40,965 nucleotides of DNA from a virus (IMGVR_UViG_2541047735_000003:1-40965), one strand, 5' to 3'; positions 5,198 to 34,347 are shown, counted from the stretch's first letter. The notes: generated from the sequence alone by a model not told the origin. Numbers and translations: made by a program.

Positions 5198-5212
5198 TTA
5201 CCGTTGAGGTAA
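5198..5212. promoter_or_regulatory. Operator palindrome TTACCGTTGAGGTAA (leftward promoter region)
   Basis: TTACC-N5-GGTAA between the leftward -35-like element and the start of the first leftward gene. Confidence 0.6.
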
Positions 5213-5259
5213 TAATTATGCGTATTTGGTTTGATGTCAATAGATATGAGTTAAAAAAA

Positions 5260-5274
5260 TTACCCATTAGGTAA
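5260..5274. promoter_or_regulatory. Operator palindrome TTACCCATTAGGTAA
   Basis: Perfect TTACC-N5-GGTAA about 20 bp upstream of the TTGACA -35-like element of the leftward promoter. Confidence 0.6.
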
Positions 5275-5287
5275 TAGTATAGGCAAT

Positions 5288-5310
5288 AAAAAAGCCGCCA
5301 GAAGGCGGCT
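5288..5310 (-). terminator. Intrinsic terminator downstream of repressor gene
   Basis: Minus strand: AGCCGCC-TTCT-GGCGGCT stem-loop followed by a T-run. Confidence 0.6.
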
Positions 5311-5331
5311 TACTTACTGAAAAATATGATT

Positions 5332-5916
5332 TTATTGTTTGTTTTTTTCGTTCTGGTTGATGACAAATTCAATGTAACTTTCGATCTTTGCTTTCTCGGT
5401 TTCGGGTAACAATGCGTAGCGCGAGCGGTCATAGTTGATGGTCGCAGGGTCGTGCGGGTGAATCAGTAATTCATAGCCGTGACGCCCGAATGCGGATGCA
5501 ACATTCTCCAGGGTGGAAATGGAAACGCTGACCTCATTGTTTAACAGGCGGCTGATTGTCACCTGGGCGACGCCGGATGCGCGGTGAAGTTTTCCCTGTG
5601 TTGAAAGGTCGCGGCTTTCGCTCATCCAGCGTTCCAGGTTGTGAGCCGCCAGCTGGCCAATGTCGCTTGGGCCGACAGGCTGAAAACCTTCCTGAGAAAG
5701 CGAGCGATCGATATCAAGCCAGTTACGGGGTTTATTGGCGGCAGCTTCAATTTTTCGCGCAACCTGGTCGCCGATAACCTTCTTGCCAAGAGCCCAGCGG
5801 TTTACCAGATTTGCCTGAGTTCCAAGTTTTTCTGCCATCCGCGTCTGAACACCATTGAATTCACGGTCGATCAAGTCGTTGAGATTTTGCCTGCGGACGT
5901 CCTGGATACTTTTCAT
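5332..5916 (-). CDS. CI-like prophage repressor with two HTH domains and no S24 peptidase domain
   Basis: 194-aa protein; N-terminal Cro/CI-type HTH (TRMAEKLGTQANLVNRWALGKK) and a second HTH-like segment (ASGVAQVTISRLLNNE); divergent from the cro-like gene across an operator-rich intergenic region; no Ala-Gly/Ser-Lys autocleavage module seen. Confidence 0.65.
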   Translation of the reverse strand: MKSIQDVRRQNLNDLIDREFNGVQTRMAEKLGTQANLVNRWALGKKVIGDQVARKIEAAANKPRNWLDIDRSLSQEGFQPVGPSDIGQLAAHNLERWMSESRDLSTQGKLHRASGVAQVTISRLLNNEVSVSISTLENVASAFGRHGYELLIHPHDPATINYDRSRYALLPETEKAKIESYIEFVINQNEKNKQ

Positions 5917-5971
5917 TTTCTGGAAAATCGCCTCGTATATGAATCAGTAGATGATTCAATTTAAAGCAATA

Positions 5972-6034
5972 TTACCCAACAGGTAAATGCACCCCATAGG
6001 TAACTATCCTTGATTTTTGTTACCTTATGGGTGA
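5972..6034. promoter_or_regulatory. Tripartite operator between repressor and cro-like genes
   Basis: Three sites in 63 bp: TTACCCAACAGGTAA (5972-5986), GCACCCCATAGGTAA (5989-6003), TTACCTTATGGGTGA (6020-6034). Confidence 0.65.
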
Positions 6035-6070
6035 ATATTTATTATCTGAAATAAATATCAGGCAATAGCT

Positions 6071-6301
6071 ATGAGCGATAACGGACATTTCGATTTCAAA
6101 AAGCACTGGCTTGCACTTACTCCGGATGAGCGTGAAGCCTTCGCACAGGAAGCCGGAACGACGAGTCACTATATCCAGACTCACTTAACAGGTAAGCGCA
6201 AAATGCCAGGTAAAGTATTGATGAATGGGCTTTTTAAAGCCTGTAAAACAAGACAATGGCTGCGCTCAAAAGCAGAACTGGCATACTTCTTCTACTCATG
6301 A
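6071..6301 (+). CDS. Cro-like small regulator
   Basis: 76-aa protein immediately rightward of the operators, divergent from the repressor, followed by an intrinsic terminator. Confidence 0.55.
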   Translation: MSDNGHFDFKKHWLALTPDEREAFAQEAGTTSHYIQTHLTGKRKMPGKVLMNGLFKACKTRQWLRSKAELAYFFYS

Positions 6302-6323
6302 TATCCAGCCACAACCCTCTGTA

Positions 6324-6345
6324 GACCGCCACCCGGCGGTCTTTT
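6324..6345 (+). terminator. Intrinsic terminator after cro-like gene (tR1-like)
   Basis: GACCGCC-ACCC-GGCGGTC followed by TTTT. Confidence 0.65.
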
Positions 6346-6356
6346 CATATCTATTC

Positions 6357-6371
6357 GCACCTCAAAGGTAA
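6357..6371. promoter_or_regulatory. Operator-like site GCACCTCAAAGGTAA
   Basis: Imperfect copy of the palindrome immediately after the cro terminator. Confidence 0.4.
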
Positions 6372-6451
6372 TAAAAAACCAAATCTGGTTGATCTTTTTT
6401 TTGTGTCAGCACAAAATGACCGTAATCCCAATACTAATAACAGGGCTTACC

Positions 6452-6652
6452 ATGGAAATCATTACACGTATTGATGCCGCAAAGCGCGGACTTAAACGCT
6501 ACTACACCGGAAAACCATGTAAGCACGGACATGACAGTGAACGTTGGGTTTACAACGGACACTGTGTTGAGTGCACCATGGAATCAAACCGTCGTATCAG
6601 GGCAGAGATTAAGCAGATCATGATTAATTCCTCCCCACAACATTCAAGCTGA
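6452..6652 (+). CDS. Hypothetical Cys/His-rich protein (cII position)
   Basis: 67 aa starting at MEIITRI (internal Met of ORF 6389..6652); CxH-HGH...CVEC pattern suggests metal binding; located between the cro terminator and the replication genes. Confidence 0.4.
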   Translation: MEIITRIDAAKRGLKRYYTGKPCKHGHDSERWVYNGHCVECTMESNRRIRAEIKQIMINSSPQHSS

Positions 6653-6667
6653 TAGCGGAGATTAATC

Positions 6668-7459
6668 ATGAGCAGACATGCAACAGATTGGGCCTGGGAG
6701 ACAGATCCAGGTAGCTCGTCATTAAAGCTCATACTGCTCTCGATGGCTGACAGAGCCGATGAATATAACCTATGCTACCCCAGCATAGAACGCCTCGTTA
6801 AAGACACTTGCCTGAATAAAAAAACCGTGCAGGCCGGGCTTATATCGCTCATGAAAATGGGGCTTATTTCAGATACCGGAGAGAGAAAGGGAGCGACAAA
6901 AAGAGTGCGGGTTTTCTCTCTTAATATAACCAAAAACGGGAACATTAAAGGCAACCGGGAGGGGGGCAATGAACCCGAAAACGGTAATGTTACCGAAAGC
7001 GGGAATATACCCAAAAACGGGATGTTGAATGATCCCAAAAACGGGATCCAGAACCAGTCATATAACCAGTCATTTAACCAAGAGAGGGAGAGCAGGACAA
7101 AAACCGGGAATTCTGTGCCTCATGACCCCGGCGCAAACAACGCCGTGATGAATAACTTTGTTCCTCCTGGTGGGCCAGGGCAATTAGGCAAATTTGTCAT
7201 GCATGAACAATGGCAACCATCAGATGACTTTCTTCGGAAAAGCTCATTGCAGGGAATCTACCTGGACAGTCTGCCAACGGCACAGGAACTTGCAGAGTTC
7301 AGAATTTACTGGATGGCTGAGGGTAAGGCATACCATCAGGCACAGTGGGAGCAGAAGCTGGCAAGGCGGCTGCAGATTAGCAGACAGAAGCAACCAACAT
7401 TACCTGATAACAACGTTCCGCACTGGAACAGCCCTGAAGCGTGGGAGGATTTCTTGTGA
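6668..7459 (+). CDS. Replication initiator (lambda O-like)
   Basis: 263-aa protein; N-terminal DWAW...LKLILLSMADRADE...CYPSIERL HTH typical of phage replication initiators; contains four iteron-like direct repeats inside the coding sequence. Confidence 0.65.
   Translation: MSRHATDWAWETDPGSSSLKLILLSMADRADEYNLCYPSIERLVKDTCLNKKTVQAGLISLMKMGLISDTGERKGATKRVRVFSLNITKNGNIKGNREGGNEPENGNVTESGNIPKNGMLNDPKNGIQNQSYNQSFNQERESRTKTGNSVPHDPGANNAVMNNFVPPGGPGQLGKFVMHEQWQPSDDFLRKSSLQGIYLDSLPTAQELAEFRIYWMAEGKAYHQAQWEQKLARRLQISRQKQPTLPDNNVPHWNSPEAWEDFL
6929..7048 (+). repeat. Iteron-like direct repeats inside the O-like gene (candidate origin)
   Basis: Four copies of CC(C/A)(A/G)AAAACGG(G/T)A at 6930, 6975, 7011 and 7035, followed by a tandem AACCAGTCAT(A/T)TAACC pair. 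Confidence 0.5.
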
Positions 7460-8241
7460 ACAACGTTTTTACCGCGATACAAAACCGTGACGGAGAAGCC
7501 CTTTCTCGCATGTCAGGTTATCAGCATCAATACGTCAACAATGACAATGTGGTGAACATGTCAGCAGAGAGGCTTGTTGATGCCCTTTTCAAACAGCTGA
7601 AACAACTGTTTCCGGCGGCAGTGGTAACCAACCTGAAGACGCCAGAGCAGGAAGTCGCTGCAAAACAGCAGTGGATTGCTGCGTTTGCCGAAGGTGGGAT
7701 CCGAACCCGTGAACAGGTTTCTGCTGGTATGCGCCACGCCCGCGCCAGTGAATCTCCGTTCTGGCCGTCGCCAGGGCAATTCATCAAGTGGTGCAAAGAC
7801 AGCAAGATGGTTCTTGGCGTCACCATTGACGATGTGATGGCGGAGTTTCACCGGTACAGCAAGGAAAAAAGTTTATATCCTGGTGGTCCCGAAAGATTCC
7901 CGTGGCGGCATCCGGTTATGTACTGGGTCGTATGTGATACCCGCCGTGCAATGTATCAGCGCCAGCTTAGCGAGATTGAGGTTGAGAAACACGCGCGCAG
8001 GCTGCTCGATGATTGGGCGAAAAAGGTGGCTTCCGGACAGCAGATACCCGATCCGGTGATCAGCATACAGGCAAAGCCAGAGCCCATGAGTACACCTCCG
8101 GACACAGGGAGAGACGTTTACCATCCACCAGGGCGAAGTTTCGGGTGCATGCCTAACGCCGCCACCCTTGGGGGAATAACACCGGCGCAGTGGCTGATGG
8201 AGGAATACAGGCGGGGAAAGGCGGCAGGATTTATCAAGTAA
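7456..8241 (+). CDS. Replication protein (lambda P-like helicase loader candidate)
   Basis: Follows the O-like gene with a short overlap; GTG at 7456 preceded by GGGAGGA; assignment rests mainly on position. Confidence 0.45.
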   Translation: MNNVFTAIQNRDGEALSRMSGYQHQYVNNDNVVNMSAERLVDALFKQLKQLFPAAVVTNLKTPEQEVAAKQQWIAAFAEGGIRTREQVSAGMRHARASESPFWPSPGQFIKWCKDSKMVLGVTIDDVMAEFHRYSKEKSLYPGGPERFPWRHPVMYWVVCDTRRAMYQRQLSEIEVEKHARRLLDDWAKKVASGQQIPDPVISIQAKPEPMSTPPDTGRDVYHPPGRSFGCMPNAATLGGITPAQWLMEEYRRGKAAGFIK

Positions 8242-8278
8242 TACCAGCGCGATAGCGCATTTTTTTACGCCTCAACAA

Positions 8279-8293
8279 TTACCTATAAGGTAA
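8279..8293. promoter_or_regulatory. Operator palindrome TTACCTATAAGGTAA
   Basis: Perfect site in the intergenic region after the P-like gene. Confidence 0.55.
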
Positions 8294-8340
8294 CAAAACA
8301 TTCTAAACTCTATTGATTTCGTGTCTTATGTGGTTTTTAA

Positions 8341-8355
8341 TTACCTTAGAGGTAA
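8341..8355. promoter_or_regulatory. Operator palindrome TTACCTTAGAGGTAA overlapping RBS
   Basis: Perfect site ending 3 nt before ATG 8359; its right half doubles as the Shine-Dalgarno region. Confidence 0.55.
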
Positions 8356-8358
8356 ATC

Positions 8359-8706
8359 ATGAGAAAACAGATACAGGCTCTTGGTCGACTCAAAACAGGC
8401 CAGATGAACAAAACAGAATCTGCGTATTGCCAGCACCTTGAGCAGCGTAAACGTGCAGGGGAAATCGCCTGGTATCGATTCGAGGGTATCAAGCTGCGGT
8501 TAGCTGACAACACGTTCTATACGCCCGATTTCGCTGTGATGCTCGCCACCGGAGAGATGGAACTGCACGAAGTGAAAGGGGGATTCTGGACCGACGACGC
8601 CAGGGTGAAAACCAAAGTAGCCGCAGATCAGTATCCGTTCCGAATCATCGGGGTAACGGTTAAACCAAAGAAAGCAGGTGGCGGCTGGAACATCGAAGAG
8701 TTCTGA
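8359..8706 (+). CDS. PD-(D/E)xK-type nuclease, possible Holliday-junction resolvase
   Basis: 115-aa protein with YTPDFAV...GEMELHEVKGG fitting a PD...ExK nuclease motif; nin-region position; an operator palindrome overlaps its RBS. Confidence 0.45.
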   Translation: MRKQIQALGRLKTGQMNKTESAYCQHLEQRKRAGEIAWYRFEGIKLRLADNTFYTPDFAVMLATGEMELHEVKGGFWTDDARVKTKVAADQYPFRIIGVTVKPKKAGGGWNIEEF

Positions 8707-8767
8707 ATCGACGATCTTTTTAGTTATCAATGTAATCAATAAGTTATGTGGATAAGCGAGGGTAAAG

Positions 8768-9271
8768 ATGGAAAGTAATATCAAAGGGTTAGTTGCCGCC
8801 GGGCATGAGATGGCTTCGGAACTGAAAGCAGAATGTGGTGCCGTTGATATGCGCAGTGTGGCAAAGCTGATCAGCGATTTGGCAACGCAACTGGAAGTGC
8901 AACTGGTGCGTGCTAATGCGCTGGCGGCGGAGAATGCGGGGCTGAAGTCTGCACACCCTCAACCATTCGGACCTGAGATGATGAAGGCTCTTGATGCGTA
9001 TGAGAAGCATCAGGATGAAGTGCCGGAGACTGGGATGCTTGATGCATTTTTCATCTTGCGCGACAGCATCCGTGTTGAAACCCCAGCCACCGACGCTTTT
9101 CTGGCTGAAGTACGGGCGCAGGGCGTGGAGATGCTGGCAAAAAATCATCAAAGTATCGTCAATGCACTTAAGGGGGATTCTTTATTTTCTGATGGTGAAT
9201 ACCGGCATGCAATTATCGCTTCCGCAGCAACATCTTTCGCCGCAGAGCTTCGCAAAGGAGGCAACCAGTGA
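8768..9271 (+). CDS. Ead/Ea22-like protein
   Basis: 167-aa acidic coiled-coil-like protein in the early accessory region; recalled family resemblance only. Confidence 0.45.
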   Translation: MESNIKGLVAAGHEMASELKAECGAVDMRSVAKLISDLATQLEVQLVRANALAAENAGLKSAHPQPFGPEMMKALDAYEKHQDEVPETGMLDAFFILRDSIRVETPATDAFLAEVRAQGVEMLAKNHQSIVNALKGDSLFSDGEYRHAIIASAATSFAAELRKGGNQ

Positions 9272-9798
9272 GCAAGATTGATTATCAAAAGCTTCGTGAA
9301 ATCGCTGAAAAAACAAAAATTGCTGGTGAAGCACCTGTAATGCCTTTCGATCAGCGAATTAATGCGCTTAACGATTTTATGAAGCACTTTTCGCCAGATA
9401 TCGCGCTGGCATTGTTGGATGAACGGGAAAGAAACCTGCAATACATCAAAAGCCGCGATCAGGAGAACGAGGATATTGCGCTAACGGTAGGGAAGCTGCG
9501 TGTTGAGCTGGAAGCTGCAGAGAAGCGCATTGCAGAACTGGAAGCCGAACCTGTAAGCCAAACTTACAAGTTGAACGAGCTGTCGGGCAACTATCCGGTA
9601 ACTCCGGATGGTTGGATAAGCTGTAGTGAGCGAATGCCCGCTCAAGATGATTGGATTTTAATTTATTCAAAGCACGGCGAGTATATGGCAGGACAGGTAC
9701 AAGGGGAATACGTGGAGTTGAGCGACGGCACTTTATCGTGGTTAGGGAACGCCTTGTTCTGGATGCCGCTACCAGAACCGCCGCAGGAGGTGAAGTGA
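9268..9798 (+). CDS. Ead/Ea22-like protein with DUF551-like C-terminus
   Basis: 176-aa; coiled-coil N-terminus and C-terminal WISCSERMP...WILIYSKHGEY...LFWMPLPEPP resembling DUF551. Confidence 0.5.
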   Translation: MSKIDYQKLREIAEKTKIAGEAPVMPFDQRINALNDFMKHFSPDIALALLDERERNLQYIKSRDQENEDIALTVGKLRVELEAAEKRIAELEAEPVSQTYKLNELSGNYPVTPDGWISCSERMPAQDDWILIYSKHGEYMAGQVQGEYVELSDGTLSWLGNALFWMPLPEPPQEVK

Positions 9799-9920
9799 TG
9801 AACAAGTGCAACGCTCTGCTTTATGCCATGGTGATTGGTTTCGGCCTGGCTGCTGGTATCCGGGTTTATATTACCTGGGAGTCATTAATCAATCTGGCGT
9901 GGAGTGCGATTCGTGGCTAA
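9799..9920 (+). CDS. Hypothetical small membrane protein (40 aa)
   Basis: MNKCNALLYAMVIGFGLAAGIRVYITWESLINLAWSAIRG; single hydrophobic helix; ATG directly after the upstream stop. Confidence 0.3.
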
Positions 9921-10251
9921 ATCCCCCGCAGAACGCAAAGCCGCGCAGCGCGCTCGGCAGTCCGCCGCCGGTGAGCGCAAAATTGAACTGGTGCTGGATA
10001 AGCAGGAGCAGGAAATGCTGGAGCGTAACTGTGCCACGCGTCGCCCCGGGCGTGCGCCTTACGAATTTGGTGAGTATATAGCGTTACTGACCCGCCAGGA
10101 TGATGCACGCGTGCGCGGGCGTATAAAATCGATCAGCAGAAAACGTTGCGGTAAGTGCGGCGAGAGAGTTCCAGTTAATTCATGCCCGTGTAATGGTGAC
10201 TCGCAATGCTGGGTGACCAAAGGCTGGCATGAAACGAAATTAATAGTGTGA
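9904..10251 (+). CDS. Hypothetical Cys-rich protein (CxxC...CPC), possible regulator
   Basis: 115 aa; C-terminal RKRCGKCGERVPVNSCPCNG zinc-finger-like cluster; GTG start (alternative GTG at 9913); its stop lies inside the GTGACATGTCAC palindrome. Confidence 0.4.
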   Translation: MRFVAKSPAERKAAQRARQSAAGERKIELVLDKQEQEMLERNCATRRPGRAPYEFGEYIALLTRQDDARVRGRIKSISRKRCGKCGERVPVNSCPCNGDSQCWVTKGWHETKLIV

Positions 10252-10260
10252 CATGTCACG
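10247..10260. repeat. 14-bp palindrome TGTGACATGTCACG (copy 1)
   Basis: Perfect 12-bp palindrome GTGACATGTCAC with conserved flanks; overlaps the stop of gene 9904..10251. Confidence 0.6.
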
Positions 10261-10268
10261 AAGGTGTT

Positions 10269-10481
10269 ATGCCAAAAATACGCTACGACCTTGAAGATAT
10301 GAGAGATAACTCAGCAAATTTTCCGAAAGAGGTTAAATTTCTCATGCATAAGTATGGTTGCGCCAGGAGGGATATAGTTATCGACAGTCAGCACCCTTGC
10401 GGCGAGGATGTAATTTTCATTCGCGGTAAATGGGAAGGGTATCTTGACGAGAGTTTTTACGATGAATTTGATGGACTTTGA
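10269..10481 (+). CDS. Hypothetical protein
   Basis: ORF-track frame 10248..10481; ATG at 10269 (MPKIRYD) preceded by GAAGGTG; no motif. Confidence 0.4.
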   Translation: MPKIRYDLEDMRDNSANFPKEVKFLMHKYGCARRDIVIDSQHPCGEDVIFIRGKWEGYLDESFYDEFDGL

Positions 10482-10523
10482 ATACTGCCGCCAACTATGG
10501 CGGCTTTATTTTGCATGGTACTA

Positions 10524-10538
10524 TTACCACAACGGTAA
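10524..10538. promoter_or_regulatory. Operator palindrome TTACCACAACGGTAA upstream of terminase small subunit
   Basis: Perfect site 17 nt upstream of ATG 10556. Confidence 0.55.
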
Positions 10539-10555
10539 CTATTACCACGGTGGTT

Positions 10556-11152
10556 ATGATGCCTGCTGAACCTAAAACCTATAAACGCAAATCAACGCAA
10601 TTTAAGCCACTAACAGCAATGCAGGAGGCTTATTGCCAGTCATACATCAAAACGCCTGAAAACCAGACTCAGGCAGCGATTAACGCAGGATTCTCCCCAA
10701 ATACAGCGGCAGTTAAAGCCAGTGTCATGATGCGCGATGAACGCATTCAAAAACGGATTGCCGAGTTGATGGAGGAGCGCAACAAACGAATGCGCGTCAG
10801 TGCTGATTACGTTCTCATGCGCCTGGTGGAGATCGACCAGATGGACGTGATCGACATCCTCAACGACGATGGGAGCCTTAAGCCAATCCGCGAGTGGCCG
10901 AAAATCTGGCGCACTACGCTTAGTGGCTTTGATCTGTCATCGACCATCATGAACATGAACGAGGATTCGATAGAGACAATCCTCAAAAAAATTAAATGGC
11001 CTGACAAGGTGAAGAACCTCGAACTGATTGGTAAGCACGTCGACGTCAACGCATTCAAAGAACGCCTGGATGTTAATGTGAATGTGACAATTGCTGATCG
11101 CATAGCGGCAGCCAGGAAGAGACTGAAAGAACGTCAGGATGGCAATCAGTGA
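10556..11152 (+). CDS. Terminase small subunit
   Basis: Directly upstream of and overlapping the large terminase; about 199 aa from ATG 10556 (ORF-track frame opens at TTG 10478); small-terminase-like region TPENQTQAAINAGFSPNTAAVKASVMM. Confidence 0.65.
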   Translation: MMPAEPKTYKRKSTQFKPLTAMQEAYCQSYIKTPENQTQAAINAGFSPNTAAVKASVMMRDERIQKRIAELMEERNKRMRVSADYVLMRLVEIDQMDVIDILNDDGSLKPIREWPKIWRTTLSGFDLSSTIMNMNEDSIETILKKIKWPDKVKNLELIGKHVDVNAFKERLDVNVNVTIADRIAAARKRLKERQDGNQ

Positions 11153-12624
11153 CAGATACAGCGTTATCTCCTGAAGAGCAGTTAATCGAGGATATTGCAG
11201 GGTTCACTCACGATCCGCTTGGCTATGCCCTCTATGCGTTCCCGTGGGGGGAAGAGGGTACTGAACTGGCACATGCCACCGGTCCACGTCAGTGGCAGGC
11301 CGATGCGTTCCGAGAGATACGTGATCACCTGCAGAATCCAGAGACGCGATATCAGCCGCTTATGCTGGCACGTGCTTCTGGTCACGGTATTGGTAAATCC
11401 GCATTCATCTCAATGCTGATCAACTGGGGCATGTCCACTTGCGAGGATTGTAAGGTCGTGGTGACCGCCAACACCGACAACCAGCTACGAACGAAGACCT
11501 GGCCGGAAATTATCAAGTGGTCAAACCTTGCTATCACGAAAGACTGGTTTACCTGTACCGCTACCGCGATGTACAGCAATGACCCTGGGCACGACAAGCG
11601 GTGGCGAGCTGACGCAATCCCCTGGTCTGAGCACAACACTGAGGCATTCGCCGGACTACACAACGAGCGTAAACGCATCATCGTGGTATTTGATGAAGCG
11701 TCGAACATTGCGGATCTGGTGTGGGAAGTTGCCGAGGGTGCGCTAACGGACGAAGACACTGAGATTATCTGGGTGGCTTTCGGAAACCCTACACGTAACA
11801 CCGGGCGTTTCCGTGAATGTTTCCGCAAATACAAACACCGCTGGAAAACTGCGCAGATTGACAGCAGGACGGTGGAAGGCACCAACAAACAGCAGTTGCA
11901 GAAATGGGTTGATGACTACGGGGAAGATAGCGACTTCGTTAAAATCCGTGTGCGTGGCATATTCCCTGATGCATCTGAATTGCAGTTTATCCCTACCGGT
12001 CTTACTGACGAGGCAATGAAACGGGTGGTAACTGCTGCGCAGGTGGCACATGCTCCGGTGATAATCGGCGTTGACCCGGCATACTCCGGCGTTGATGACG
12101 CTGTGATATACCTGCGGCAGGGGCTACACAGTAAGGTGCTGTGGACTGGCAACAAGACTACCGACGATCTGATTATGGCGAAGCGTATCGCTGACTTTGA
12201 AGACCAGTATCAGGCTGACGCGGTGTTCATCGACTTCGGTTACGGAACCGGTTTGAAGTCAATCGGTGACGGCTGGGGTCGTACATGGCAACTTGTTCCG
12301 TTCGGTGGCGCGTCTACTGACCAGCAGATGCTCAACAAGCGTGGGGAGATGTTCAACTCATGCAAGACATGGCTGAGGCTGGGCGGCATGCTTGATGACC
12401 AGGAAACAGCGGACGACCTGTCGGCGGCAGAGTACAAAGTTCGAGTGGACGGTAAAATCGTTATCGAACCGAAGGAAGATATCAAGGAGCGGCTTGGGCG
12501 TTCTCCTGGTAAAGGCGATGCGCTACTGCTGACGTTTGCGTTCCCGGTGTCAAAGCGCCTGCGAATTCCCGGGCAGCAGAACCAGCAAGGCAAGGCCATT
12601 ACAGATTACGATCCCTATGCTTAA
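11149..12624 (+). CDS. Terminase large subunit
   Basis: 491-aa protein; ATPase-like region (LARASGHGIGKSAF, VVFDEASNI) followed by a nuclease-like C-terminal half; canonical position after the small subunit. Confidence 0.85.
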   Translation: MTDTALSPEEQLIEDIAGFTHDPLGYALYAFPWGEEGTELAHATGPRQWQADAFREIRDHLQNPETRYQPLMLARASGHGIGKSAFISMLINWGMSTCEDCKVVVTANTDNQLRTKTWPEIIKWSNLAITKDWFTCTATAMYSNDPGHDKRWRADAIPWSEHNTEAFAGLHNERKRIIVVFDEASNIADLVWEVAEGALTDEDTEIIWVAFGNPTRNTGRFRECFRKYKHRWKTAQIDSRTVEGTNKQQLQKWVDDYGEDSDFVKIRVRGIFPDASELQFIPTGLTDEAMKRVVTAAQVAHAPVIIGVDPAYSGVDDAVIYLRQGLHSKVLWTGNKTTDDLIMAKRIADFEDQYQADAVFIDFGYGTGLKSIGDGWGRTWQLVPFGGASTDQQMLNKRGEMFNSCKTWLRLGGMLDDQETADDLSAAEYKVRVDGKIVIEPKEDIKERLGRSPGKGDALLLTFAFPVSKRLRIPGQQNQQGKAITDYDPYA

Positions 12625-12674
12625 TCCGTTAGCGGGGATAATGACGGAGATATCCTCTGGTGAGGATAAAACAA

Positions 12675-12694
12675 AGCCAGCTCATCGGCTGGCT
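12675..12694. terminator. Bidirectional stem-loop between terminase and convergent moron gene
   Basis: AGCCAGC-TCATCG-GCTGGCT with T-rich sequence on both strands. Confidence 0.45.
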
Positions 12695-12697
12695 GTT

Positions 12698-12711
12698 TGT
12701 GACATGTCACG
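12698..12711. repeat. 14-bp palindrome TGTGACATGTCACG (copy 2)
   Basis: Identical 14-mer between the terminase stop and the convergent minus-strand gene, immediately after hairpin 12675-12694. Confidence 0.6.
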
Positions 12712-12714
12712 GTG

Positions 12715-13289: not shown

Positions 13290-13366
13290 TGGCGTGGCAT
13301 GCAGGATTCGAACCTGCGACCAACCGCTTAGAAGGCGGTTGCTCTGTCCAACTGAGCTAATGCCAC
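13290..13366 (-). tRNA. tRNA-Arg (anticodon UCU)
   Basis: Minus strand reads GTGGCATTAGCTCAGTTGGACAGAGCAACCGCCTTCTAAGCGGTTGGTCGCAGGTTCGAATCCTGCATGCCACGCCA: 7-bp acceptor stem, D-arm, anticodon loop CTTCTAA (anticodon TCT), T-loop GGTTCGAATCC, encoded CCA. Confidence 0.85.
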
Positions 13367-13688: not shown

Positions 13689-13703
13689 TTACCTGAAAGG
13701 TAA
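13689..13703. promoter_or_regulatory. Operator palindrome TTACCTGAAAGGTAA upstream of portal operon
   Basis: Perfect site about 90 bp upstream of ATG 13794; identical 15-mer to the site at 34333. Confidence 0.55.
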
Positions 13704-13793
13704 TAATTAGTGCGTTAAATGTCAAGTATCTACGATAAATAAATCACATGTGGTTAAATTGGTAATAATTTAATTGCGTACGGAGTCATTGAT

Positions 13794-14000: not shown

Positions 14001-14014
14001 CCGGAGTCATTGAA

Positions 14015-25601: not shown

Positions 25602-25602
25602 C

Positions 25603-29849: not shown

Positions 29850-29850
29850 T

Positions 29851-30222
29851 ATGAACAGAATTATATTAATGATTATTCTTATGCTTTTAGTTGTAAAATC
29901 TTTTGCAGATACTACCTCACCGTTAATGATTCAGCCTAAAAATGGGGAAACACTGGAGGATTCTAAAAAGCATACAATGGAATATTTTGGATGTATAAAA
30001 GGGCAGGCCGTAAAATACGCTAAGACAGGAGAAAGTGTTGATTCTATATCCAAAGCTTCGGTTGTGTCATGCGAGTCGTACATACAAAAGATTGCTGAAT
30101 CAAATATATACTATTTAAATTCCTCTCAAGACGGTAAGCGGAAATTTATTGGAAGGCTTAAATCAGATGGTGAAAGTTTAGCAACGAAATTTGCTATGGA
30201 TGAAAAGCTAAAAAATAAATAG
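29851..30222 (+). CDS. Secreted small protein (AT-rich moron)
   Basis: 123-aa ORF with N-terminal signal-peptide-like MNRIILMIILMLLVVKSFA; visibly AT-rich codon usage compared with flanking structural genes. Confidence 0.55.
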   Translation: MNRIILMIILMLLVVKSFADTTSPLMIQPKNGETLEDSKKHTMEYFGCIKGQAVKYAKTGESVDSISKASVVSCESYIQKIAESNIYYLNSSQDGKRKFIGRLKSDGESLATKFAMDEKLKNK

Positions 30223-30372
30223 GTGACTACATGCAAGCGATAGGATTCATTGGGCTGATGGTTTGCAGCTAACCTGCAAGTTTGCGAAGTGCCAAACAAA
30301 TAATCTCACGGCGCTGTTCATCCCCAGGAAGCTGCATTGTGATTTTCACAATGCAGGTTTTAAACCACTGCT

Positions 30373-30579
30373 TCATTTTCGTAAAGCCATACAAATCATG
30401 GCTTGCACCCCACCGGCAGAAGGTATGGTGATTTCCACCATACCCTTCGAGAAGCGTTGAGAAATCTTCTTATGTTGAGATTTCCAGTCTAGACCCATTC
30501 CCTCAACGATAGGTTTCATTGGGGTGTACGGTTCGCCGTTGTGATTGACAACATAAAGTTCTACGCCGTGGAATGGCAC
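30373..30579 (-). pseudogene. Truncated antirepressor N-terminal fragment
   Basis: 68-aa ORF whose sequence (NGEPYTPMKPIVEGMGLDWKSQHKKI) resembles the N-terminal domain of P22-type antirepressors but ends after about 68 residues, far shorter than full-length antirepressors. Confidence 0.4.
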
Positions 30580-30726
30580 GTTGATAGTAGTGACAAGTTT
30601 GAAACATCGCTGGTTGTAAGCCAGCAGATGCTCGTTATTTTACATCGCGGTACAATTTCTCGCTGGTGGCTCTTTTACACACCTTAACCAAATACGGTTG
30701 ATTTTAATGTTTTTTCGCGCTTATCA

Positions 30727-30741
30727 TTACCTTTTCGGTAA
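30727..30741. promoter_or_regulatory. Operator palindrome TTACCTTTTCGGTAA at head of antirepressor leader 1
   Basis: Perfect site followed by TTTACA, a hairpin and an intrinsic terminator. Confidence 0.55.
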
Positions 30742-30831
30742 ATTTACATCGCGCTCATCTTGTGCCATAGTAATCGGGCACTGGCAAAATCCAGTGCCGG
30801 GATTGGCGTCCCGGGTTACTAAGTGGCGCAT

Positions 30832-30854
30832 ACCACGCCAGACGTGGTTTTTTT
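30832..30854 (+). terminator. Intrinsic terminator inside antirepressor leader 1
   Basis: ACCACG-CCAGA-CGTGGT followed by seven T; about 155 bp upstream of the antirepressor start codon. Confidence 0.6.
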
Positions 30855-31010
30855 ATGCGTTAAGCACAGCTATATCCGAATTATGGTGGGCTGGGCAGGG
30901 GTCCGAAAGGACGCCGGTACCACTTAGGCCGGTACGCCAACCTTGTCCAGTTCACCACCAGTAATTGGCGTTGCGGTGGTGATTAAAATCACTAAGTGGA
31001 GATAACCACC

Positions 31011-31721
31011 ATGGCTAATGCTCAAACTGCCATCTTCAAATTTGAATCTGTTAACCCTATCCGTTCCATCATTATCGATGGCCAACCATGGTTTGTAGCC
31101 CAAGACGTTTGTAGTGCGCTGCGTATCCAAAACGTCACCCAAGCACTTGAAAAACTGGATGATGATGAAAGGTCTATGTTCAACATAGGGCATGAACATC
31201 GTGCAATTTTTGACAGCCGAGTAAAAGAGATCAACATCATCTCCGAGTCAGGCCTCTACACACTGATCCTCCGCTGCCGCGACGCAGTGACACCAGGCAC
31301 TATCCCCTACCGCTTTCGTAAATGGGTTACAGGTGAGGTTCTTCCTCAGATCCGCCGCACCGGAAGTTACATTAAAAACTCGCTCCCGCAGGAAGAACGC
31401 ATAAAGATAGTTGCCGACCAGGTAGCCAACGCCACAGCATCAGCAGTGATGCAGGCAATGAAGATAGAGAACAAAACCTACAGTGCCCCGCTGAAGCCCG
31501 GCTACCGCAGCCTGATTCATTCTCCGTCTGGTGTTCTCGGCCTGACGGAGAACTCACTGCTGATGAATCTGCTGAACCAGTTACAGGACGACGGGCACGA
31601 CGTATCGGGCGCGGCGGCGGAGCTGACCACCATGTTCTGCTACATCGTCGGTGTGAGTAAATGCCTGCGTGATATCCAGACCCACGCGGAATACATCAAC
31701 GACAAGGCAGGGTTCTTCTGA
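31011..31721 (+). CDS. Bro-N domain antirepressor-like protein (copy 1)
   Basis: N-terminal Bro-N-like motif (DGQPWFVAQDVCSALRI); C-terminal about 135 aa nearly identical to the convergent paralog 32993..33730; ATG 31011 (ORF-track frame starts 30996). Confidence 0.65.
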   Translation: MANAQTAIFKFESVNPIRSIIIDGQPWFVAQDVCSALRIQNVTQALEKLDDDERSMFNIGHEHRAIFDSRVKEINIISESGLYTLILRCRDAVTPGTIPYRFRKWVTGEVLPQIRRTGSYIKNSLPQEERIKIVADQVANATASAVMQAMKIENKTYSAPLKPGYRSLIHSPSGVLGLTENSLLMNLLNQLQDDGHDVSGAAAELTTMFCYIVGVSKCLRDIQTHAEYINDKAGFF

Positions 31722-31752
31722 CGGGCGGTGGCACAGGGATGTGCCTTTAAAT
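31308..31752 (+). repeat. Inverted repeat: 3' half of antirepressor copy 1
   Basis: About 445 bp nearly identical in inverse orientation to 32962..33406, extending about 30 bp past the stop codon. Confidence 0.65.
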
Positions 31753-31793
31753 AATTCTGTACAGATTGCAGACCGGGGGTGAATAGCGTACTA

Positions 31794-31808
31794 TTACCTT
31801 AAAGGTAA
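31794..31808. promoter_or_regulatory. Operator palindrome TTACCTTAAAGGTAA upstream of cargo operon
   Basis: Perfect site 43 bp upstream of ATG 31851. Confidence 0.55.
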
Positions 31809-31850
31809 ACCTGTTTTTATTTTATACCTGTAACTTACCGGAGATTAAAG

Positions 31851-32177
31851 ATGACAAAACTTGGATTCGTGATGAGAGGTCCGGTAAGAAGCGGAACTCA
31901 TGCAAAGCGTAGCAAGAGTCGTATTTTTACTGGTAAGGTTGTAGCACGTAAATCAGCTATTGGCTCGTTCAATAGTGAAAATGCGGCATTGCGCCATATT
32001 TTTATCAGCACAAAGCCAAGAGCATCCGCTGATGTGCATACAATGTCTATTCCTATCACAAAGAATATAAAGCGGATAAAAAAGCTCTCATCTGCAGAAT
32101 CAAAAGAGATATCTTTCCGCCAGCTTAACTCATTAGAAACGCATATGAAGGAAGAGGAATTCGATGTTTTTGAGTGA
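31851..32177 (+). CDS. Hypothetical basic protein, first gene of AT-rich cargo operon
   Basis: 108 aa, Lys/Arg-rich; GGAG upstream; overlaps the downstream gene by 14 nt; no recognisable family. Confidence 0.5.
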   Translation: MTKLGFVMRGPVRSGTHAKRSKSRIFTGKVVARKSAIGSFNSENAALRHIFISTKPRASADVHTMSIPITKNIKRIKKLSSAESKEISFRQLNSLETHMKEEEFDVFE

Positions 32178-32676
32178 GTATAGCGGGAAGGTTATACCTA
32201 CTGGTGAGTTTAAAACTGATGACTTTCTGATTTCGCTAAAAGATGCTTTTAAACAACACTGGCGTCATGGTCATCATCCTGATCTGGGAAAAGATACTCT
32301 TTTTGAAAGACCAGAGGAAGTATTAGGCTTCCATCTCAGAAAGGTTCATGTCAATATTGGTGAATATGCATCATATTCATACTCATGTACTGAACAGTGT
32401 TGGGATGAGTGGTCATATGGATTGATTGATGAACAAGGAAATTACAGGCCAAAACCAACCAGTAACGCATATCTCATATATGCAGTCAATGAAATAAGAG
32501 ATGCAGCCTTACTAGCTTATTGGGACCCGCCCGCACACACCAAAGCTAACGCAAAAGTTTGGATGGATTCCGTATTGAATTTCACAAAATTATTTCATGA
32601 ACGAACGAATACAGCTCCACTTAGTAGAAATGTTTATCCGTGGGATTATTCGTACAAATCCAAAAAGCCTGCATAG
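32164..32676 (+). CDS. YafO-like toxin candidate
   Basis: 170 aa; segments FHLRKVHVNIGE and TSNAYLIYAV...AALLAYWDPPAHTKA resemble the YafO pattern as recalled from memory; AT-rich. Confidence 0.4.
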   Translation: MFLSEYSGKVIPTGEFKTDDFLISLKDAFKQHWRHGHHPDLGKDTLFERPEEVLGFHLRKVHVNIGEYASYSYSCTEQCWDEWSYGLIDEQGNYRPKPTSNAYLIYAVNEIRDAALLAYWDPPAHTKANAKVWMDSVLNFTKLFHERTNTAPLSRNVYPWDYSYKSKKPA

Positions 32677-32757
32677 TAGTTTTTTATGGACGAAACAAAA
32701 GTCAGTGCTACACTCATTGACGCCACATTGAGGTGGTTTATAGATGGAAATTTCACA

Positions 32758-32919
32758 ATGAAAAAAGCATTTGCTGCACTGTTCGTTTTGTTGTCTCTGG
32801 TAGCTTCAACTCAGGCCTTTGCCGGTCGTTGTCAGCACGACAGCGACACTGCTGCTGACGGCTCCCGCTGCGGTGGGCGTTCTGCGGATTCCCGCCCGGG
32901 TGGCGGTGGCATTCGTTAA
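32758..32919 (+). CDS. Small secreted peptide
   Basis: Internal ATG of ORF 32686..32919 gives MKKAFAALFVLLSLVASTQAFA signal peptide followed by a short Gly/Arg/Cys-containing mature region. Confidence 0.45.
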   Translation: MKKAFAALFVLLSLVASTQAFAGRCQHDSDTAADGSRCGGRSADSRPGGGGIR

Positions 32920-32924
32920 AAACA

Positions 32925-32942
32925 AGGCCGCGAAAGCGGCCT
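32925..32942. terminator. Stem-loop between cargo operon and antirepressor copy 2
   Basis: AGGCCGC-GAAA-GCGGCCT; T-rich on the minus strand, so it likely terminates antirepressor copy 2. Confidence 0.45.
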
Positions 32943-32955
32943 GTGACATGTCACG
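32942..32955. repeat. 14-bp palindrome TGTGACATGTCACG (copy 3)
   Basis: Identical 14-mer between the cargo operon and the 3' end of antirepressor copy 2, immediately after hairpin 32925-32942. Confidence 0.6.
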
Positions 32956-32961
32956 CTAGTT

Positions 32962-33406
32962 TCGTTTTGCACGTCCCTGTGCCGCCGTTCTGTCAGAAGA
33001 ACCCTGCCTTGTCGTTGATGTATTCCGCGTGGGTCTGGATATCACGCAGGCATTTGCTCACACCGACGATGTAGCAGAACATGGTGGTCAGCTCCGCCGC
33101 CGCGCCCGATACATCGTGCCCGTCTTCCTGTAACTGGTTCAGCAGATTCATCAGCAGTGAGTTCTCCGTCAGGCCGAGAACACCAGACGGAGAATGAATC
33201 AGGCTGCGGTAGCCGGGCTTCAGCGGGGCACTGTAGGTTTTGTTCTCTATCTTCATCGCCTGCATTACTGCTGACGCCGTGGCGTTGGCTACCTGGTCGG
33301 CAACCATCTTTATGCGTTCTTCCTGCGGGAGCGAGTTTTTAATGTAACTTCCGGTGCGGCGGATCTGAGGAAGAACCTCACCTGTAACCCATTCAAGAAA
33401 TCTGAA
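32962..33406 (-). repeat. Inverted repeat: 3' half of antirepressor copy 2
   Basis: Partner of 31308..31752; antisense spurious ORFs 31372..31557 and 33157..33342 are about 90 percent identical, showing the nucleotide identity. Confidence 0.65.
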
Positions 33407-33730
33407 TGCTCTCGTTCCCTCAGTCATTGCCTCTTTGCAACGCAGAATAAGGATGTAGAGACCTGATTCTGAAACGATGGATAGTTCTTGTATTCCACCA
33501 GGGGTCTGTATTGAATACAGCCCCTTTTTGTTCCAGCCTTTTTTATCAAGTTTTCTCGCTTGTGTAACATCAATATTCAAAGCATTGCACACATCTTTGG
33601 TGACAAACCAAGGTTCTCCGTCAATCATGAACATACGGATCTGGCAGGATGACTCAAAGGAAAAGATGGAAGGTTTGGTATTCATGGCGATCACCTTTGT
33701 AGTTAGGTTAATCACCACCGCTGAGACCAA
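32993..33730 (-). CDS. Bro-N domain antirepressor-like protein (copy 2)
   Basis: N-terminal Bro-N-like motif (DGEPWFVTKDVCNALNI) divergent from copy 1; C-terminal half nearly identical to copy 1; true start probably the internal ATG (MNTKPSIF). Confidence 0.65.
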   Translation of the reverse strand: MVSAVVINLTTKVIAMNTKPSIFSFESSCQIRMFMIDGEPWFVTKDVCNALNIDVTQARKLDKKGWNKKGLYSIQTPGGIQELSIVSESGLYILILRCKEAMTEGTRAFRFLEWVTGEVLPQIRRTGSYIKNSLPQEERIKMVADQVANATASAVMQAMKIENKTYSAPLKPGYRSLIHSPSGVLGLTENSLLMNLLNQLQEDGHDVSGAAAELTTMFCYIVGVSKCLRDIQTHAEYINDKAGFF

Positions 33731-33967
33731 TCAGATGGTGGTGAACTGTGCAGAGTTGGTCTTACCGGCTACAAAGGAACCCGGCGCACCTTTCGGTGCC
33801 CCCACACAGCCCACCATAGAATAGGTGCGCTTTACACATAAAAAAACCGCTTATGCGGCATATGTGCCTCTGTAGTAATCCGGGAGACCAATCCCGGCAC
33901 TGGATTTTGCCAGTGCCCGATTACTATGGCACAAGAGGAGTGCGATGTAAATTTACCGAAAAGGTAA
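33731..33967 (-). repeat. Antirepressor leader, inverted-repeat copy A'
   Basis: Reverse complement aligns with 30715..30995, including the operator, the hairpin and a T-run terminator with a shorter CCGC-ATAA-GCGG stem. Confidence 0.6.
33953..33967. promoter_or_regulatory. Operator palindrome TTACCGAAAAGGTAA at head of antirepressor leader 2
   Basis: Perfect site; mirror-image counterpart of the site at 30727. Confidence 0.55.
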
Positions 33968-33998
33968 ATATAAGCACTCCACTTGGTAATTGCAAACC

Positions 33999-34256
33999 TT
34001 ATCTGGTTTGTTTTCGTAATTGTTCGGCACAATAGTCGAGATGTGTTTGCAGATCCTGCATAGACATCTGTGAGCTGGTGACGTAGTTAATCAGTGCAGT
34101 CAGTTCGGCAAGTGGGCCATCGACATTAAATCCATCCTTATCGAGATCCCGGAGTAATTTCATCAAGTGCGATCCCTCCACCAGTGACCTGACGCCTCCC
34201 GGCGTGTGAATCCTTTCGGTAAATCCGTCTTCCAGTGGATAGTGATACTGCTGCAT
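33999..34256 (-). CDS. Small stand-alone antirepressor C-domain homolog, LexA-box associated
   Basis: 85 aa from ATG 34256; IHTPGGVRSLVEGSHLMKLLRDLDKDGFNVDGPLAELT...DLQTH aligns with the C-terminal domain of both Bro-N proteins; a CTGT-N8-ACAG box lies about 22 bp upstream; ORF-track frame extends to 34379. Confidence 0.55.
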   Translation of the reverse strand: MQQYHYPLEDGFTERIHTPGGVRSLVEGSHLMKLLRDLDKDGFNVDGPLAELTALINYVTSSQMSMQDLQTHLDYCAEQLRKQTR

Positions 34257-34277
34257 CTTATCTTCTCCATGCAATAA

Positions 34278-34293
34278 CTGTATATTTATACAG
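34278..34293. promoter_or_regulatory. LexA (SOS) box CTGTATATTTATACAG
   Basis: Matches the CTGT-N8-ACAG consensus with an AT-rich spacer; 22 bp upstream of ATG 34256 on the minus strand. Confidence 0.6.
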
Positions 34294-34332
34294 TAGCAAA
34301 TAATTTGTTTGCTATCCAGCACGTTTTGCAAA

Positions 34333-34347
34333 TTACCTGAAAGGTAA
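34333..34347. promoter_or_regulatory. Operator palindrome TTACCTGAAAGGTAA between small antirepressor gene and tailspike
   Basis: Perfect site in the divergent intergenic region. Confidence 0.55.

Follow-up and report, generated by a model that had tools for sequence, protein, structure and literature searches.

Repressors of the type found in phage SPC32H are built from an N-terminal DNA-binding domain, a middle dimerisation domain and a C-terminal domain for tetramerisation and binding of the antirepressor Ant. In phage P1, the immI module comprises a C1-controlled promoter, the c4 antisense RNA, icd and ant. The Rep-Ant immunity switch of SPC32H was reportedly described by Kim & Ryu in J Virol in 2013 and by Kim et al. 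in PNAS in 2016, the paper behind the epsilon15 record is said to be that of Kropinski et al. in Virology in 2007 (369:234), the dispersed operators of P1 C1 and its immI module are reportedly the subject of Citron & Schuster in 1990 and of Heinrich, Velleman & Schuster in 1995, and the 'stoperators' of mycobacteriophage L5 gp71 are said to go back to Brown et al. in EMBO J in 1997. In SPC32H, Ant is a small antirepressor that takes Rep out of action; two articles treat this switch (PMC9638917; PMC9986798). Phage epsilon15 carries 12 perfect copies of the palindrome TTACC-N5-GGTAA, identical in motif to those discussed here (e.g. TTACCAAAACGGTAA and TTACCTAAAAGGTAA), and 7 of the 12 are labelled 'protein_bind: repressor, lysogeny' in its GenBank record (AY150271.2 / NC_004775). 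The labelled sites lie before terS, gp3/portal, the tailspike and the gene in the RuvC/DUF1064 position, and at PL; the labels omit the OR sites and may be predictions of the depositors.

The window analysed here, a stretch of 40,965 nt, is a phiV10-like E. coli prophage (Uetakevirus, epsilon15-like) with the palindrome at the same positions as in epsilon15. It has what distinguishes the Uetakevirus Rep-Ant systems: a Rep homologous over its full length, an ant gene by the tailspike with a LexA box, no S24 peptidase domain, and TTACC-N5-GGTAA at PL, between rep and cro and at those distal promoters that the epsilon15 record marks. The palindrome, placed at promoters of early, packaging, accessory and late genes, is very probably the operator, predicted from sequence, of the prophage's own repressor, Rep. 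This putative role is supported by its position at the -10/+1 region of sigma-70-like promoters, the conserved layout and spacing, an invariant helix (NLVNRW) in Rep and the repressor labels of epsilon15, and the same evidence sustains the proposal of the first-pass annotation that repressor operators extend well beyond the immunity region. The palindrome is a real feature and its earlier interpretation is largely correct; it is solid yet already known, because the public epsilon15 record marks the same sites as repressor-binding.

The presumed binder is encoded by rep (5332..5916, minus strand), a 194-aa SPC32H-type repressor 100% identical to phiV10 p40, with an N-terminal HTH, a middle HTH_3-like domain and a C-terminal oligomerisation region. 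Residues 1-190 align to residues 2-197 of the crystallised SPC32H Rep (PDB 5D50_A; phmmer against PDB, E 4e-42), a full-length homologue whose sequence has nevertheless diverged to 42% identity over 196 aa (BLASTP; PDB 5D50/5D4Z); identity to epsilon15 Rep is also only 42%. Pfam returned HTH families only, with no Peptidase_S24 match in Rep, and the C-terminus aligns to the oligomerisation domain of SPC32H Rep, on which grounds an autocleaving repressor of the lambda CI type was rejected. The earlier designation of the protein as CI-like thus fails mechanistically and gives way to an SPC32H-type Rep. The NLVNRW segment, Rep's recognition helix, is invariant among proteins 43-78% identical to the window's Rep, which would match the invariance of the half-sites.

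As in lambda CI/Cro (OR1-3, OL1-3), rep and cro diverge with three operators between them and there are multiple operators at PL, but the window's Rep lacks the S24 autocleavage domain, so that induction is expected to run through an antirepressor, and the operators reach the packaging, accessory and late regions and include pairs 62 bp apart. P1 C1 likewise is one prophage repressor with operators at many separate operons, and the Bro-N leaders of the window may follow the logic of immI, with a predicted operator of the repressor ahead of an antisense RNA of the C4 family, whereas C1 binds asymmetric 17-mers and has no relationship to the HTH tetramer-type repressor with palindromic sites considered here. 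L5 shares the wide distribution, with dozens of repressor sites across the prophage including late regions, but its stoperators are asymmetric, orientation-dependent and placed inside transcription units to block elongation; sites of that type were rejected for the window, whose own sites are perfectly palindromic and lie close to promoters.

Occurrence and conservation of the palindrome

An exact scan of the whole window found 11 perfect copies of TTACC-N5-GGTAA (starting at 5198, 5260, 5972, 8279, 8341, 10524, 13689, 30727, 31794, 33953 and 34333), against a mean of 0.02 over 100 dinucleotide-preserving shuffles; the enrichment seen earlier is therefore real, with one copy more than the ten then counted. 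Allowing one mismatch gave 13 copies against 0.69 expected, the extra two being those at 6020 (GGTGA) and 10542 (GGTTA). Two further copies with two mismatches, at 5989 and 6357 (both GCACC), are intergenic and match positions at which relatives carry copies with 0-2 mismatches, which brings the total to about 15 sites. When all palindromes of the form 5-N(3-8)-5 were counted without bias, TTACC-N5-GGTAA ranked first with its 11 copies, the next unrelated motif having 3.

Under the gene model used, 91% of the window is coding and about 9% non-coding, and none of the 13 copies that are perfect or have a single mismatch lies in coding sequence (chance under random placement about 0.09^13), with the caveats that 10524 and 10542 fall within a mechanical TTG ORF (10478-11152) whose homology to epsilon15 TerS starts only at ATG 10559, that 30727 falls within a mechanical ORF that is really an isrK/C4 RNA leader, and that 34333 falls within an N-terminal ORF extension of ant, the homology of which begins at ATG 34256. 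The motif is thus not equally frequent inside coding sequence, and the intergenic placement claimed for all copies was borne out, including that of 5989 and 6357.

The scan was extended to related prophages. The same motif, positions and spacings are present in phiV10, epsilon15, SPC32H, Tyrion and BUCT711 and in six enterobacterial prophages, the relatives spanning several genera; SPC32H has 10 perfect copies in the same layout. All six phages keep the 62-63 bp spacing at PL and the 62-bp pair at the gene 8359 promoter, and the 17 bp and 18 bp operator spacings are also conserved among relatives. When orthologous intergenic regions were aligned, the half-sites were invariant, and the upstream flank and the N5 were variable.

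Operators and their promoters

The arrangement of sites given by the first-pass annotation is correct: rep and the cro-like gene have three sites between them, PL has two, and so does the region ahead of gene 8359, while terS, the portal operon, both Bro-N leaders, the cargo operon and the tailspike each have one site or a pair. At PL (minus strand; TTGACA 5240-5235, 17 nt, AATTAT 5217-5212; 10/12 positions matching), the proximal OL operator (5198..5212, perfect) is centred at about +1 and its first base on the minus strand is the last T of the -10, and the distal OL operator (5260..5274, perfect), 62 bp from 5198, lies just upstream of the -35. The cro-like small regulator (6071..6301, plus strand), a homologue of phiV10 p41 whose gene opens the rightward early operon, matches phrog_35 'transcriptional repressor' (E 5.6e-13). 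Between it and rep, OR operator a (5972..5986, perfect) lies on the rep side, operator b (GCACCCCATAGGTAA, two mismatches, 5989..6003) is 17 bp from it at an offset where epsilon15 and SPC32H have a perfect copy, and operator c (TTACCTTATGGGTGA, one mismatch, 6020..6034) is within the spacer of PR (TTGTTA 6017-6022, 17 nt, TATTAT 6040-6045). A degenerate operator (GCACCTCAAAGGTAA, two mismatches, 6357..6371) lies past the terminator following the cro-like gene; its counterpart has one mismatch in phiV10, Tyrion and BUCT711 and two in epsilon15 and SPC32H.

Further away, the promoter of gene 8359 (DUF1064; TTGATT 8313-8318, 17 nt, TTTAAT 8336-8341) is bracketed by two perfect operators 62 bp apart (8279..8293 and 8341..8355), the downstream one having the final T of the -10 as its first base and stopping 3 nt before ATG 8359. 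At terS, operator 1 (10524..10538, perfect) follows a terminator (10487-10504) and starts at the last T of TGG-TACTAT, an extended -10-like element read by eye and below the scan threshold, and operator 2 (TTACCACGGTGGTTA, one mismatch, 10542..10556), 18 bp from operator 1, abuts the terS start at 10559; the 18-bp pair is also found in phiV10, epsilon15 and Tyrion. The perfect operators of the two Bro-N leaders start on the last T of a -10, namely 30727..30741 at the gene 1 leader promoter (TTGATT 30698-30703, 18 nt, TATCAT 30722-30727) and 33953..33967, equivalent to position 20497 in phiV10, at the gene 2 leader promoter on the minus strand (TTGCAA 33995-33990, 17 nt, TATATT 33972-33967). 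The cargo-operon operator (31794..31808, perfect) is at a promoter-like site (TTGCAG 31766-31771, 17 nt, TACTAT 31789-31794; by eye, below the scan thresholds) of the 3-gene operon 31851-32919.

Four promoters that pass the consensus scan have the operator in register with -10/+1. At most promoters the operator takes the final T of the -10 hexamer as its first base, a layout that fits promoter occlusion. Rep would act on the palindrome as a non-autocleaving HTH repressor of the SPC32H/epsilon15 type; the centres of the half-sites are separated by 10 bp, the distance expected if an HTH dimer binds one DNA face. A lysogen would have Rep on about 15 operators. The operator would span the transcription start, from the final T of the -10 onwards, at PL, at gene 8359, at both Bro-N leaders and probably at terS and the cargo operon, so that RNA polymerase would be excluded; at PR it would act from inside the -35/-10 spacer, and at PL and the gene 8359 promoter the second operator, 62 bp off, would bracket the promoter.

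Antirepressor, accessory leaders and late promoters

The ant gene (33999..34256, minus strand) encodes an 85-aa homologue of the SPC32H antirepressor Ant (88% identity), in both phages next to the tailspike and preceded by a LexA box, here a perfect one (CTGTATATTTATACAG, 34278..34293) that is 22 nt away from the start codon on the upstream side. By analogy with SPC32H, LexA cleavage would release ant at induction and Ant would strip Rep off all operators at once. The homologue of the only tested antirepressor is thus ant, which lies next to the operator at 34333 and is a gene separate from the two whose leaders had been called antirepressor leaders. Those leaders do carry operators, but their genes are Bro-N genes with isrK/C4 RNA leaders: gene 1 (30996..31721, plus strand; Pfam Bro-N E 1e-19) is downstream of operator 30727 and its isrK/C4 leader, and gene 2 (32993..33730, minus strand), an inverted paralogue, is downstream of operator 33953. 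Rfam found C4 RNA (66 and 78.6 bits; gathering score 45) and isrK (67.7 and 74.7 bits; gathering score 50) in both leaders, the two RNAs lying downstream of 30727/33953. Stx phage VT2-Sakai has an isrK/C4 ant leader with homology to the Bro-N leaders, yet the segment with TTACC operator and promoter is missing there; the palindrome therefore belongs to the resident immunity system and not to the RNA cassette.

Two perfect operators lie at late genes, one at the gp3/portal operon (13689..13703), 62 bp upstream of a late-promoter-like box at 13745, and one between leftward ant and the rightward tailspike gene (34333..34347), 50 bp upstream of such a box at 34377. The consensus promoter scan found no good sigma-70 promoter overlapping the operator at 13689 or 34333. 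The portal operon and tailspike here and the lysis genes in relatives share this layout, in which a conserved late-promoter-like box follows the operator at a distance of 50-62 bp; the lysis genes of the window have a late box upstream at 37807, but no operator there. These boxes look like activator-dependent late promoters, at which Rep may be a second lock. The sites that the earlier proposal of direct late control refers to are present at the portal operon and tailspike, but they sit upstream of the late box and not on it, which makes such control less certain; we infer late-operon repression, since both sites lack an overlapping sigma-70 promoter and have the late box 50-62 bp downstream, and on sequence grounds direct repression there is plausible.

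The 62-bp pairs would suit a Rep tetramer with two DNA-binding units clamping both sites. A fuller version, to which we give rather less than an even chance, would have the tetramer clamp PL and the gene 8359 promoter by a 62-bp micro-loop and hold late (CCATAT(A/G)TGG) and accessory promoters until released by Ant; its late part refers to the conserved offsets of 50, 53 and 62 bp at the portal operon and tailspike here and at the lysis genes of relatives, and its accessory part has the Bro-N/C4 and cargo promoters locked too. If true, a single protein would lock the whole prophage and be released at once by LexA-controlled Ant; a podovirus would then have a global regulon like that of P1 C1, and its structural basis would be defined.

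Other readings of the palindrome

The main binder could be another phage regulator, with two candidates, the cro-like protein (6071-6301) and the 115-aa 'transcriptional regulator' of phrog_536 (9904-10251), which would be bound at the sites and coordinate lytic timing instead of lysogenic silencing. In lambdoid phages Cro also uses the operators of CI, the cro-like protein belongs by its match to a repressor family, and the position of the operators ahead of the late boxes is one at which binding of an activator or accessory factor is conceivable. We consider this unlikely, as the geometry of the -10/+1 register at PL, at the promoter of gene 8359 and at the Bro-N leaders is that of repression, half-site invariance tracks the invariant Rep helix and the epsilon15 record, as deposited, names the repressor as the binder; the cro-like protein may share Rep's sites, but this would add to the Rep explanation and not replace it.

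The same palindromes could act as RNA hairpins (UUACC-N5-GGUAA) that mask the Shine-Dalgarno sequence or otherwise set translation or stability, an alternative raised by the first-pass annotation. A 5-7 bp stem is possible at most sites, 8341 stops 3 nt and 10542 2 nt short of a start codon, and a GAGG within 8341 could be a Shine-Dalgarno sequence. However, predicted stabilities are just -2.9 to -5.5 kcal/mol with most z-scores between -1 and -2.5, the structure predicted at 10542 is not the palindrome stem, and a start codon is adjacent at only 2/15 sites, the rest being 36-254 nt away or upstream of the -35 (5260, 8279). The imperfect copies are moreover one-sided (TCACC..GGTAA, TTACC..GGTTA, GTACC..GGTAA, GCACC..GGTAA), no double compensatory changes were seen in six genomes, in which the exact half-site sequence is conserved, and both the pairing over 62 bp and the register with the -10 belong to the DNA level. 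These weak stems, the lack of compensatory changes and the few sites at start codons leave the hairpin alternative unsupported and highly improbable.

Equally improbable is a site without regulatory role, at module-junction recombination or mosaic boundaries or related to restriction-modification: sites do flank exchangeable modules (the Bro-N/cargo block, the tailspike), Stx phage homology breaks just downstream of an operator and the phage family encodes DNA methyltransferases, but the absence from coding DNA, the fixed -10 register, the 17, 18 and 62 bp spacings and the double and triple arrays at the rep/cro switch would not be expected. Beyond what is marked in epsilon15, the window has operators in an accessory block, at the two Bro-N leaders and the cargo operon, that are absent from that phage.

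The palindrome in its prophage context

Uetakevirus (epsilon15-like) podophages, among others phiV10, phiv142-3, PAS61 and TL-2011b, match positions 5000-12000 at 96-98% identity by megablast, and the gene order of the window is that of phiV10. The integrase gene (1-1251) is followed by a leftward early operon, the repressor gene rep (5332-5916, minus strand), a cro-like gene (6071-6301), replication genes and terS/terL, and then by a portal-to-virion operon, an accessory block, the antirepressor gene ant, the tailspike gene and the lysis genes. The sequence ATTGAGTGGGAATGATT at 39787-39803, which is the attR core reported for phiV10, epsilon15 and ZX5 (PMC9782041), marks the right prophage end, and the DNA to the right of it (39895-40965) should be host DNA. 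A tRNA-Arg gene (anticodon TCT; 13290-13366, minus strand) separates terL from the portal operon, and is matched by a tRNA-Arg of SPC32H in the corresponding position.

Scanning the whole window for TTACC-N5-GGTAA, a palindrome whose half-site centres lie 10 bp, or one helical turn, apart, yielded 11 perfect copies (0.02 expected) and 13 copies with at most one mismatch (0.69 expected). This bears out the enrichment noticed in the first-pass annotation, which had counted ten perfect copies. When all 5-N(3-8)-5 palindromes were counted de novo, the motif ranked first with its 11 copies, the next unrelated palindrome having 3. The claim that the copies are all intergenic also stood, as coding sequence takes up 91% of the window and yet holds none of the 13. 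Three seeming overlaps with open reading frames are artefacts of mechanical ORF calling: at the terS sites because TerS homology begins at ATG 10559 and not at TTG 10478, at site 30727 because ORF 30698-30964 is an isrK/C4 RNA leader, and at site 34333 because Ant starts at 34256. The two-mismatch copies 5989 and 6357 are intergenic as well, at places where relatives have copies with zero to two mismatches.

The palindrome had alternatively been proposed to act as an RNA hairpin over ribosome-binding sites, and copies 8341 and 10542 do abut start codons. These are the only two, and several palindromes lie upstream of the -35 element of the accompanying promoter. Folding of all 13 sites gave weak predicted stabilities of -2.9 to -5.5 kcal/mol, which for the most part differ from shuffled sequence by no more than about two standard deviations, and the imperfect copies across six genomes are all one-sided, with no compensatory pairs. 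The hairpin was thus rejected.

Rep, Ant and the annotated repressor sites already on record

The 194-aa repressor Rep is 100% identical to phiV10 p40 and matches the crystallised Rep of SPC32H over its whole length (5D50, E 4e-42). It had been taken for a CI-like repressor, but Pfam finds HTH domains only and no S24 peptidase in it, so that its mechanism of induction is unlike that of CI. Ant of SPC32H, a small antirepressor, has an 88% identical homologue in ORF 33999-34256, and a perfect LexA box (CTGTATATTTATACAG, 34278-34293) precedes the ant start codon by 22 nt; judged by sequence, both match the LexA-controlled antirepressor switch described for SPC32H. In that switch, as reportedly found by Kim and Ryu in 2013, LexA controls ant and Rep is uncleaved. 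The LexA box was rejected as a source of the palindrome, being a different motif whose sole promoter-placed copy lies upstream of ant.

According to two papers, Rep binds palindromic DNA as a tetramer in which the DNA-binding domains of different dimers are paired, and tetrameric Ant takes this tetramer apart (PMC9638917; PMC9986798). Within the N-terminal HTH, the segment NLVNRW is invariant in Rep proteins only 43-78% identical to that of the window, which would be in step with the invariant half-site of the palindrome; the helix was itself one pattern of the genome scan, so that the close matches all share NLVNRW and TTACC. No TTACC palindrome was found with distant homologues of the N-terminal domain (Hydrogenovibrio, Thiomicrospira, Paraburkholderia), which have other helices, a weak negative that may support a pairing of operator and helix. 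Among the matches listed there was no Uetakevirus with a non-homologous repressor, the relatives noted with at least 60% portal identity all giving Rep matches. The palindromes most probably serve an SPC32H-type Rep as operators and form a regulon that spans the prophage. Their logic is like that of P1 C1, which has dispersed operators, including an operator followed by a C4 RNA upstream of antirepressor-like genes.

The GenBank record of epsilon15 and its RefSeq copy hold seven features labelled 'protein_bind; repressor; lysogeny' (12-27, 2931-2947, 19895-19911, 32479-32494, 32554-32570, 32616-32632 and 35906-35922). Since every one of these coincides with a copy of TTACC-N5-GGTAA, the idea of a genome-wide repressor is already on record for this phage group. 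The marked copies precede terS, gp3/portal, the tailspike gene, the leftward early operon and a RuvC-like gene. The feature is real, but already annotated in epsilon15, the type phage of the genus, and because Rep and Ant are also structurally characterised, the value of the present analysis lies in confirmation and in extension to one accessory block, not in discovery. Full-text literature searches found no paper describing the palindrome, and the ZX5 paper merely speculates about 'PL' (PMC9782041). Three copies between rep and gp39 (33341, 33358 and 33388), the actual rightward operator region OR, go unmarked in the epsilon15 record, as do a perfect copy ahead of the lysis genes and the other member of a 62-bp pair (24704, 35969).

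Candidate operators at promoters and at the Bro-N leaders

Promoters were located by a consensus scan together with a scan of our own, those of terS and the cargo operon being read by eye. At four sigma-70-like promoters the first T of TTACC is also the last base of the -10 hexamer, and the operator is centred at about +1: the leftward promoter PL (TTGACA, 17 nt, AATTAT, 10/12 matches; operator 5198), the promoter of gene 8359 (TTGATT, 17 nt, TTTAAT; operator 8341) and the leader promoters of two Bro-N genes (TTGATT, 18 nt, TATCAT, operator 30727; TTGCAA, 17 nt, TATATT, operator 33953). The same register was seen at terS (TGG-TACTAT; operator 10524) and at the cargo operon (TTGCAG, 17 nt, TACTAT; operator 31794). 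At the rightward promoter PR (TTGTTA, 17 nt, TATTAT) operator 6020 falls within the spacer, and closer to rep in the rep/cro region are operators 5972 and 5989, spaced by 17 bp. A second operator is found exactly 62 bp off at PL and at the 8359 promoter, the pair bracketing the promoter. This geometry of sites and promoters holds for the compared genomes as well.

The two genes first taken for antirepressors (30996-31721, plus strand; 32993-33730, minus strand) encode Bro-N domain proteins according to Pfam. Each leader encodes an isrK-like sRNA together with a C4 antisense RNA, all of them above Rfam gathering scores (30778-30854 and 30879-30962, plus strand; 33916-33840 and 33821-33734, minus strand), and is preceded by a Rep operator and promoter in an arrangement like the c4-ant module of P1/P7 immI. 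The leader has a homologue in front of ant in Stx phage VT2-Sakai, but this homology ends just downstream of the TTACC operator, the promoter-operator segment being unrelated there. Because VT2-Sakai has the same isrK/C4 cassette before ant without the TTACC operator, the palindrome would be part of the resident immunity system and not of the RNA cassette.

The Bro-N genes and their leaders are inverted paralogues (30719-30821 versus 33873-33975, 93% complementary; gene copies 31219-31722 versus 32992-33495, 91% complementary) and flank a three-gene cargo block of 1.27 kb (31851-32919) that consists of phrog_5933, phrog_1651, with a weak YafO-toxin-like Pfam match, and phrog_3117. The inverted copies could allow inversion of this block. 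To the epsilon15 record the window would add the candidate operators at the two Bro-N/isrK/C4 leaders and at the three-gene cargo operon. In phiV10/epsilon15-like prophages the immunity repressor thus probably keeps much more silent than the two early promoters. Candidate targets are packaging genes, accessory antirepressor-like genes led by C4/isrK RNAs, the cargo operon and, probably, the late operons. This bears on how one antirepressor can turn on a whole genome, and is of use for engineering phiV10-type reporter phages and for predicting which prophage cargo stays silent in lysogens.

Conservation and the late operons

Perfect copies number 8 in phiV10 (with 6 one-mismatch copies), 12 in epsilon15, 10 in SPC32H, 9 in Klebsiella phage BUCT711 and 9 in Enterobacter phage Tyrion, and the motif is also enriched in prophages of Superficieibacter, Erwinia dacicola, Klebsiella, Citrobacter (two) and Scandinavium. 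The compared genomes share the placement of the sites. PL has two, spaced by 62-63 bp, and OR has two or three, with a distance of 17 bp between two of them in every genome where both turned up. A weak site follows the cro terminator, a DUF1064 or RuvC gene is preceded by a pair at 62 bp and terS by one at 18 bp, and single sites stand before gp3/portal, between ant and the tailspike gene, before the lysis genes and before int. In alignments of the gp3-upstream and ant-tailspike regions the half-sites are invariant, N5 and the upstream flank being variable.

From the alignments there also emerged another conserved element, CATAT(G/A)TGGTT-N7-TA(A/T)(A/G)A(A/T/G), upstream of gp3/portal, the tailspike gene and the lysis genes (13745-13768, 34377-34400 and 37807-37830), and at the same positions in five relatives, phiV10, epsilon15 and Tyrion among them. 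In phiV10, SPC32H and Tyrion the copy at the lysis genes has a perfectly palindromic core, CCATATATGG. Because this box has a fair -10 and no -35, an activator-dependent late promoter is suggested. A candidate for the factor that acts on CCATAT(A/G)TGG is the 115-aa phrog_536 regulator (9904-10251). The conserved TGTGGTT box might also be read as a DnaA box, an IHF site or an extended -10, possibilities that were weighed by eye.

The operator start is conserved 62, 50 or 53 bp upstream of the TGGTT of the late box, roughly at -65 to -80, and promoter scans found no good sigma-70 promoter overlapping operators 13689 or 34333. The proposal of one prophage-wide regulator of early, accessory, antirepressor and late promoters is largely right, its late part being suggested by the conserved operator-box coupling and the epsilon15 labels. 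Rep might act there by anti-activation, by looping to the GGTAAT of the late box or by blocking divergent promoters such as Pant. No TTACC-type site was found upstream of the window's lysis genes, though the late box is there, unlike in phiV10, epsilon15, SPC32H and Tyrion, which have such a site.

The terS CDS in the phiV10 RefSeq record (41-715; window counterpart 10478-11152) is the longest ORF and covers both terS operators. The TerS proteins of epsilon15, SPC32H and Tyrion are homologous to it only from 27 codons further on (window ATG 10559), and the phiV10 start is probably mis-annotated. In Tyrion, 34059-34271 (plus strand), annotated as 'hypothetical protein gp39', spans the PL promoter and both leftward operators and is probably not a gene.
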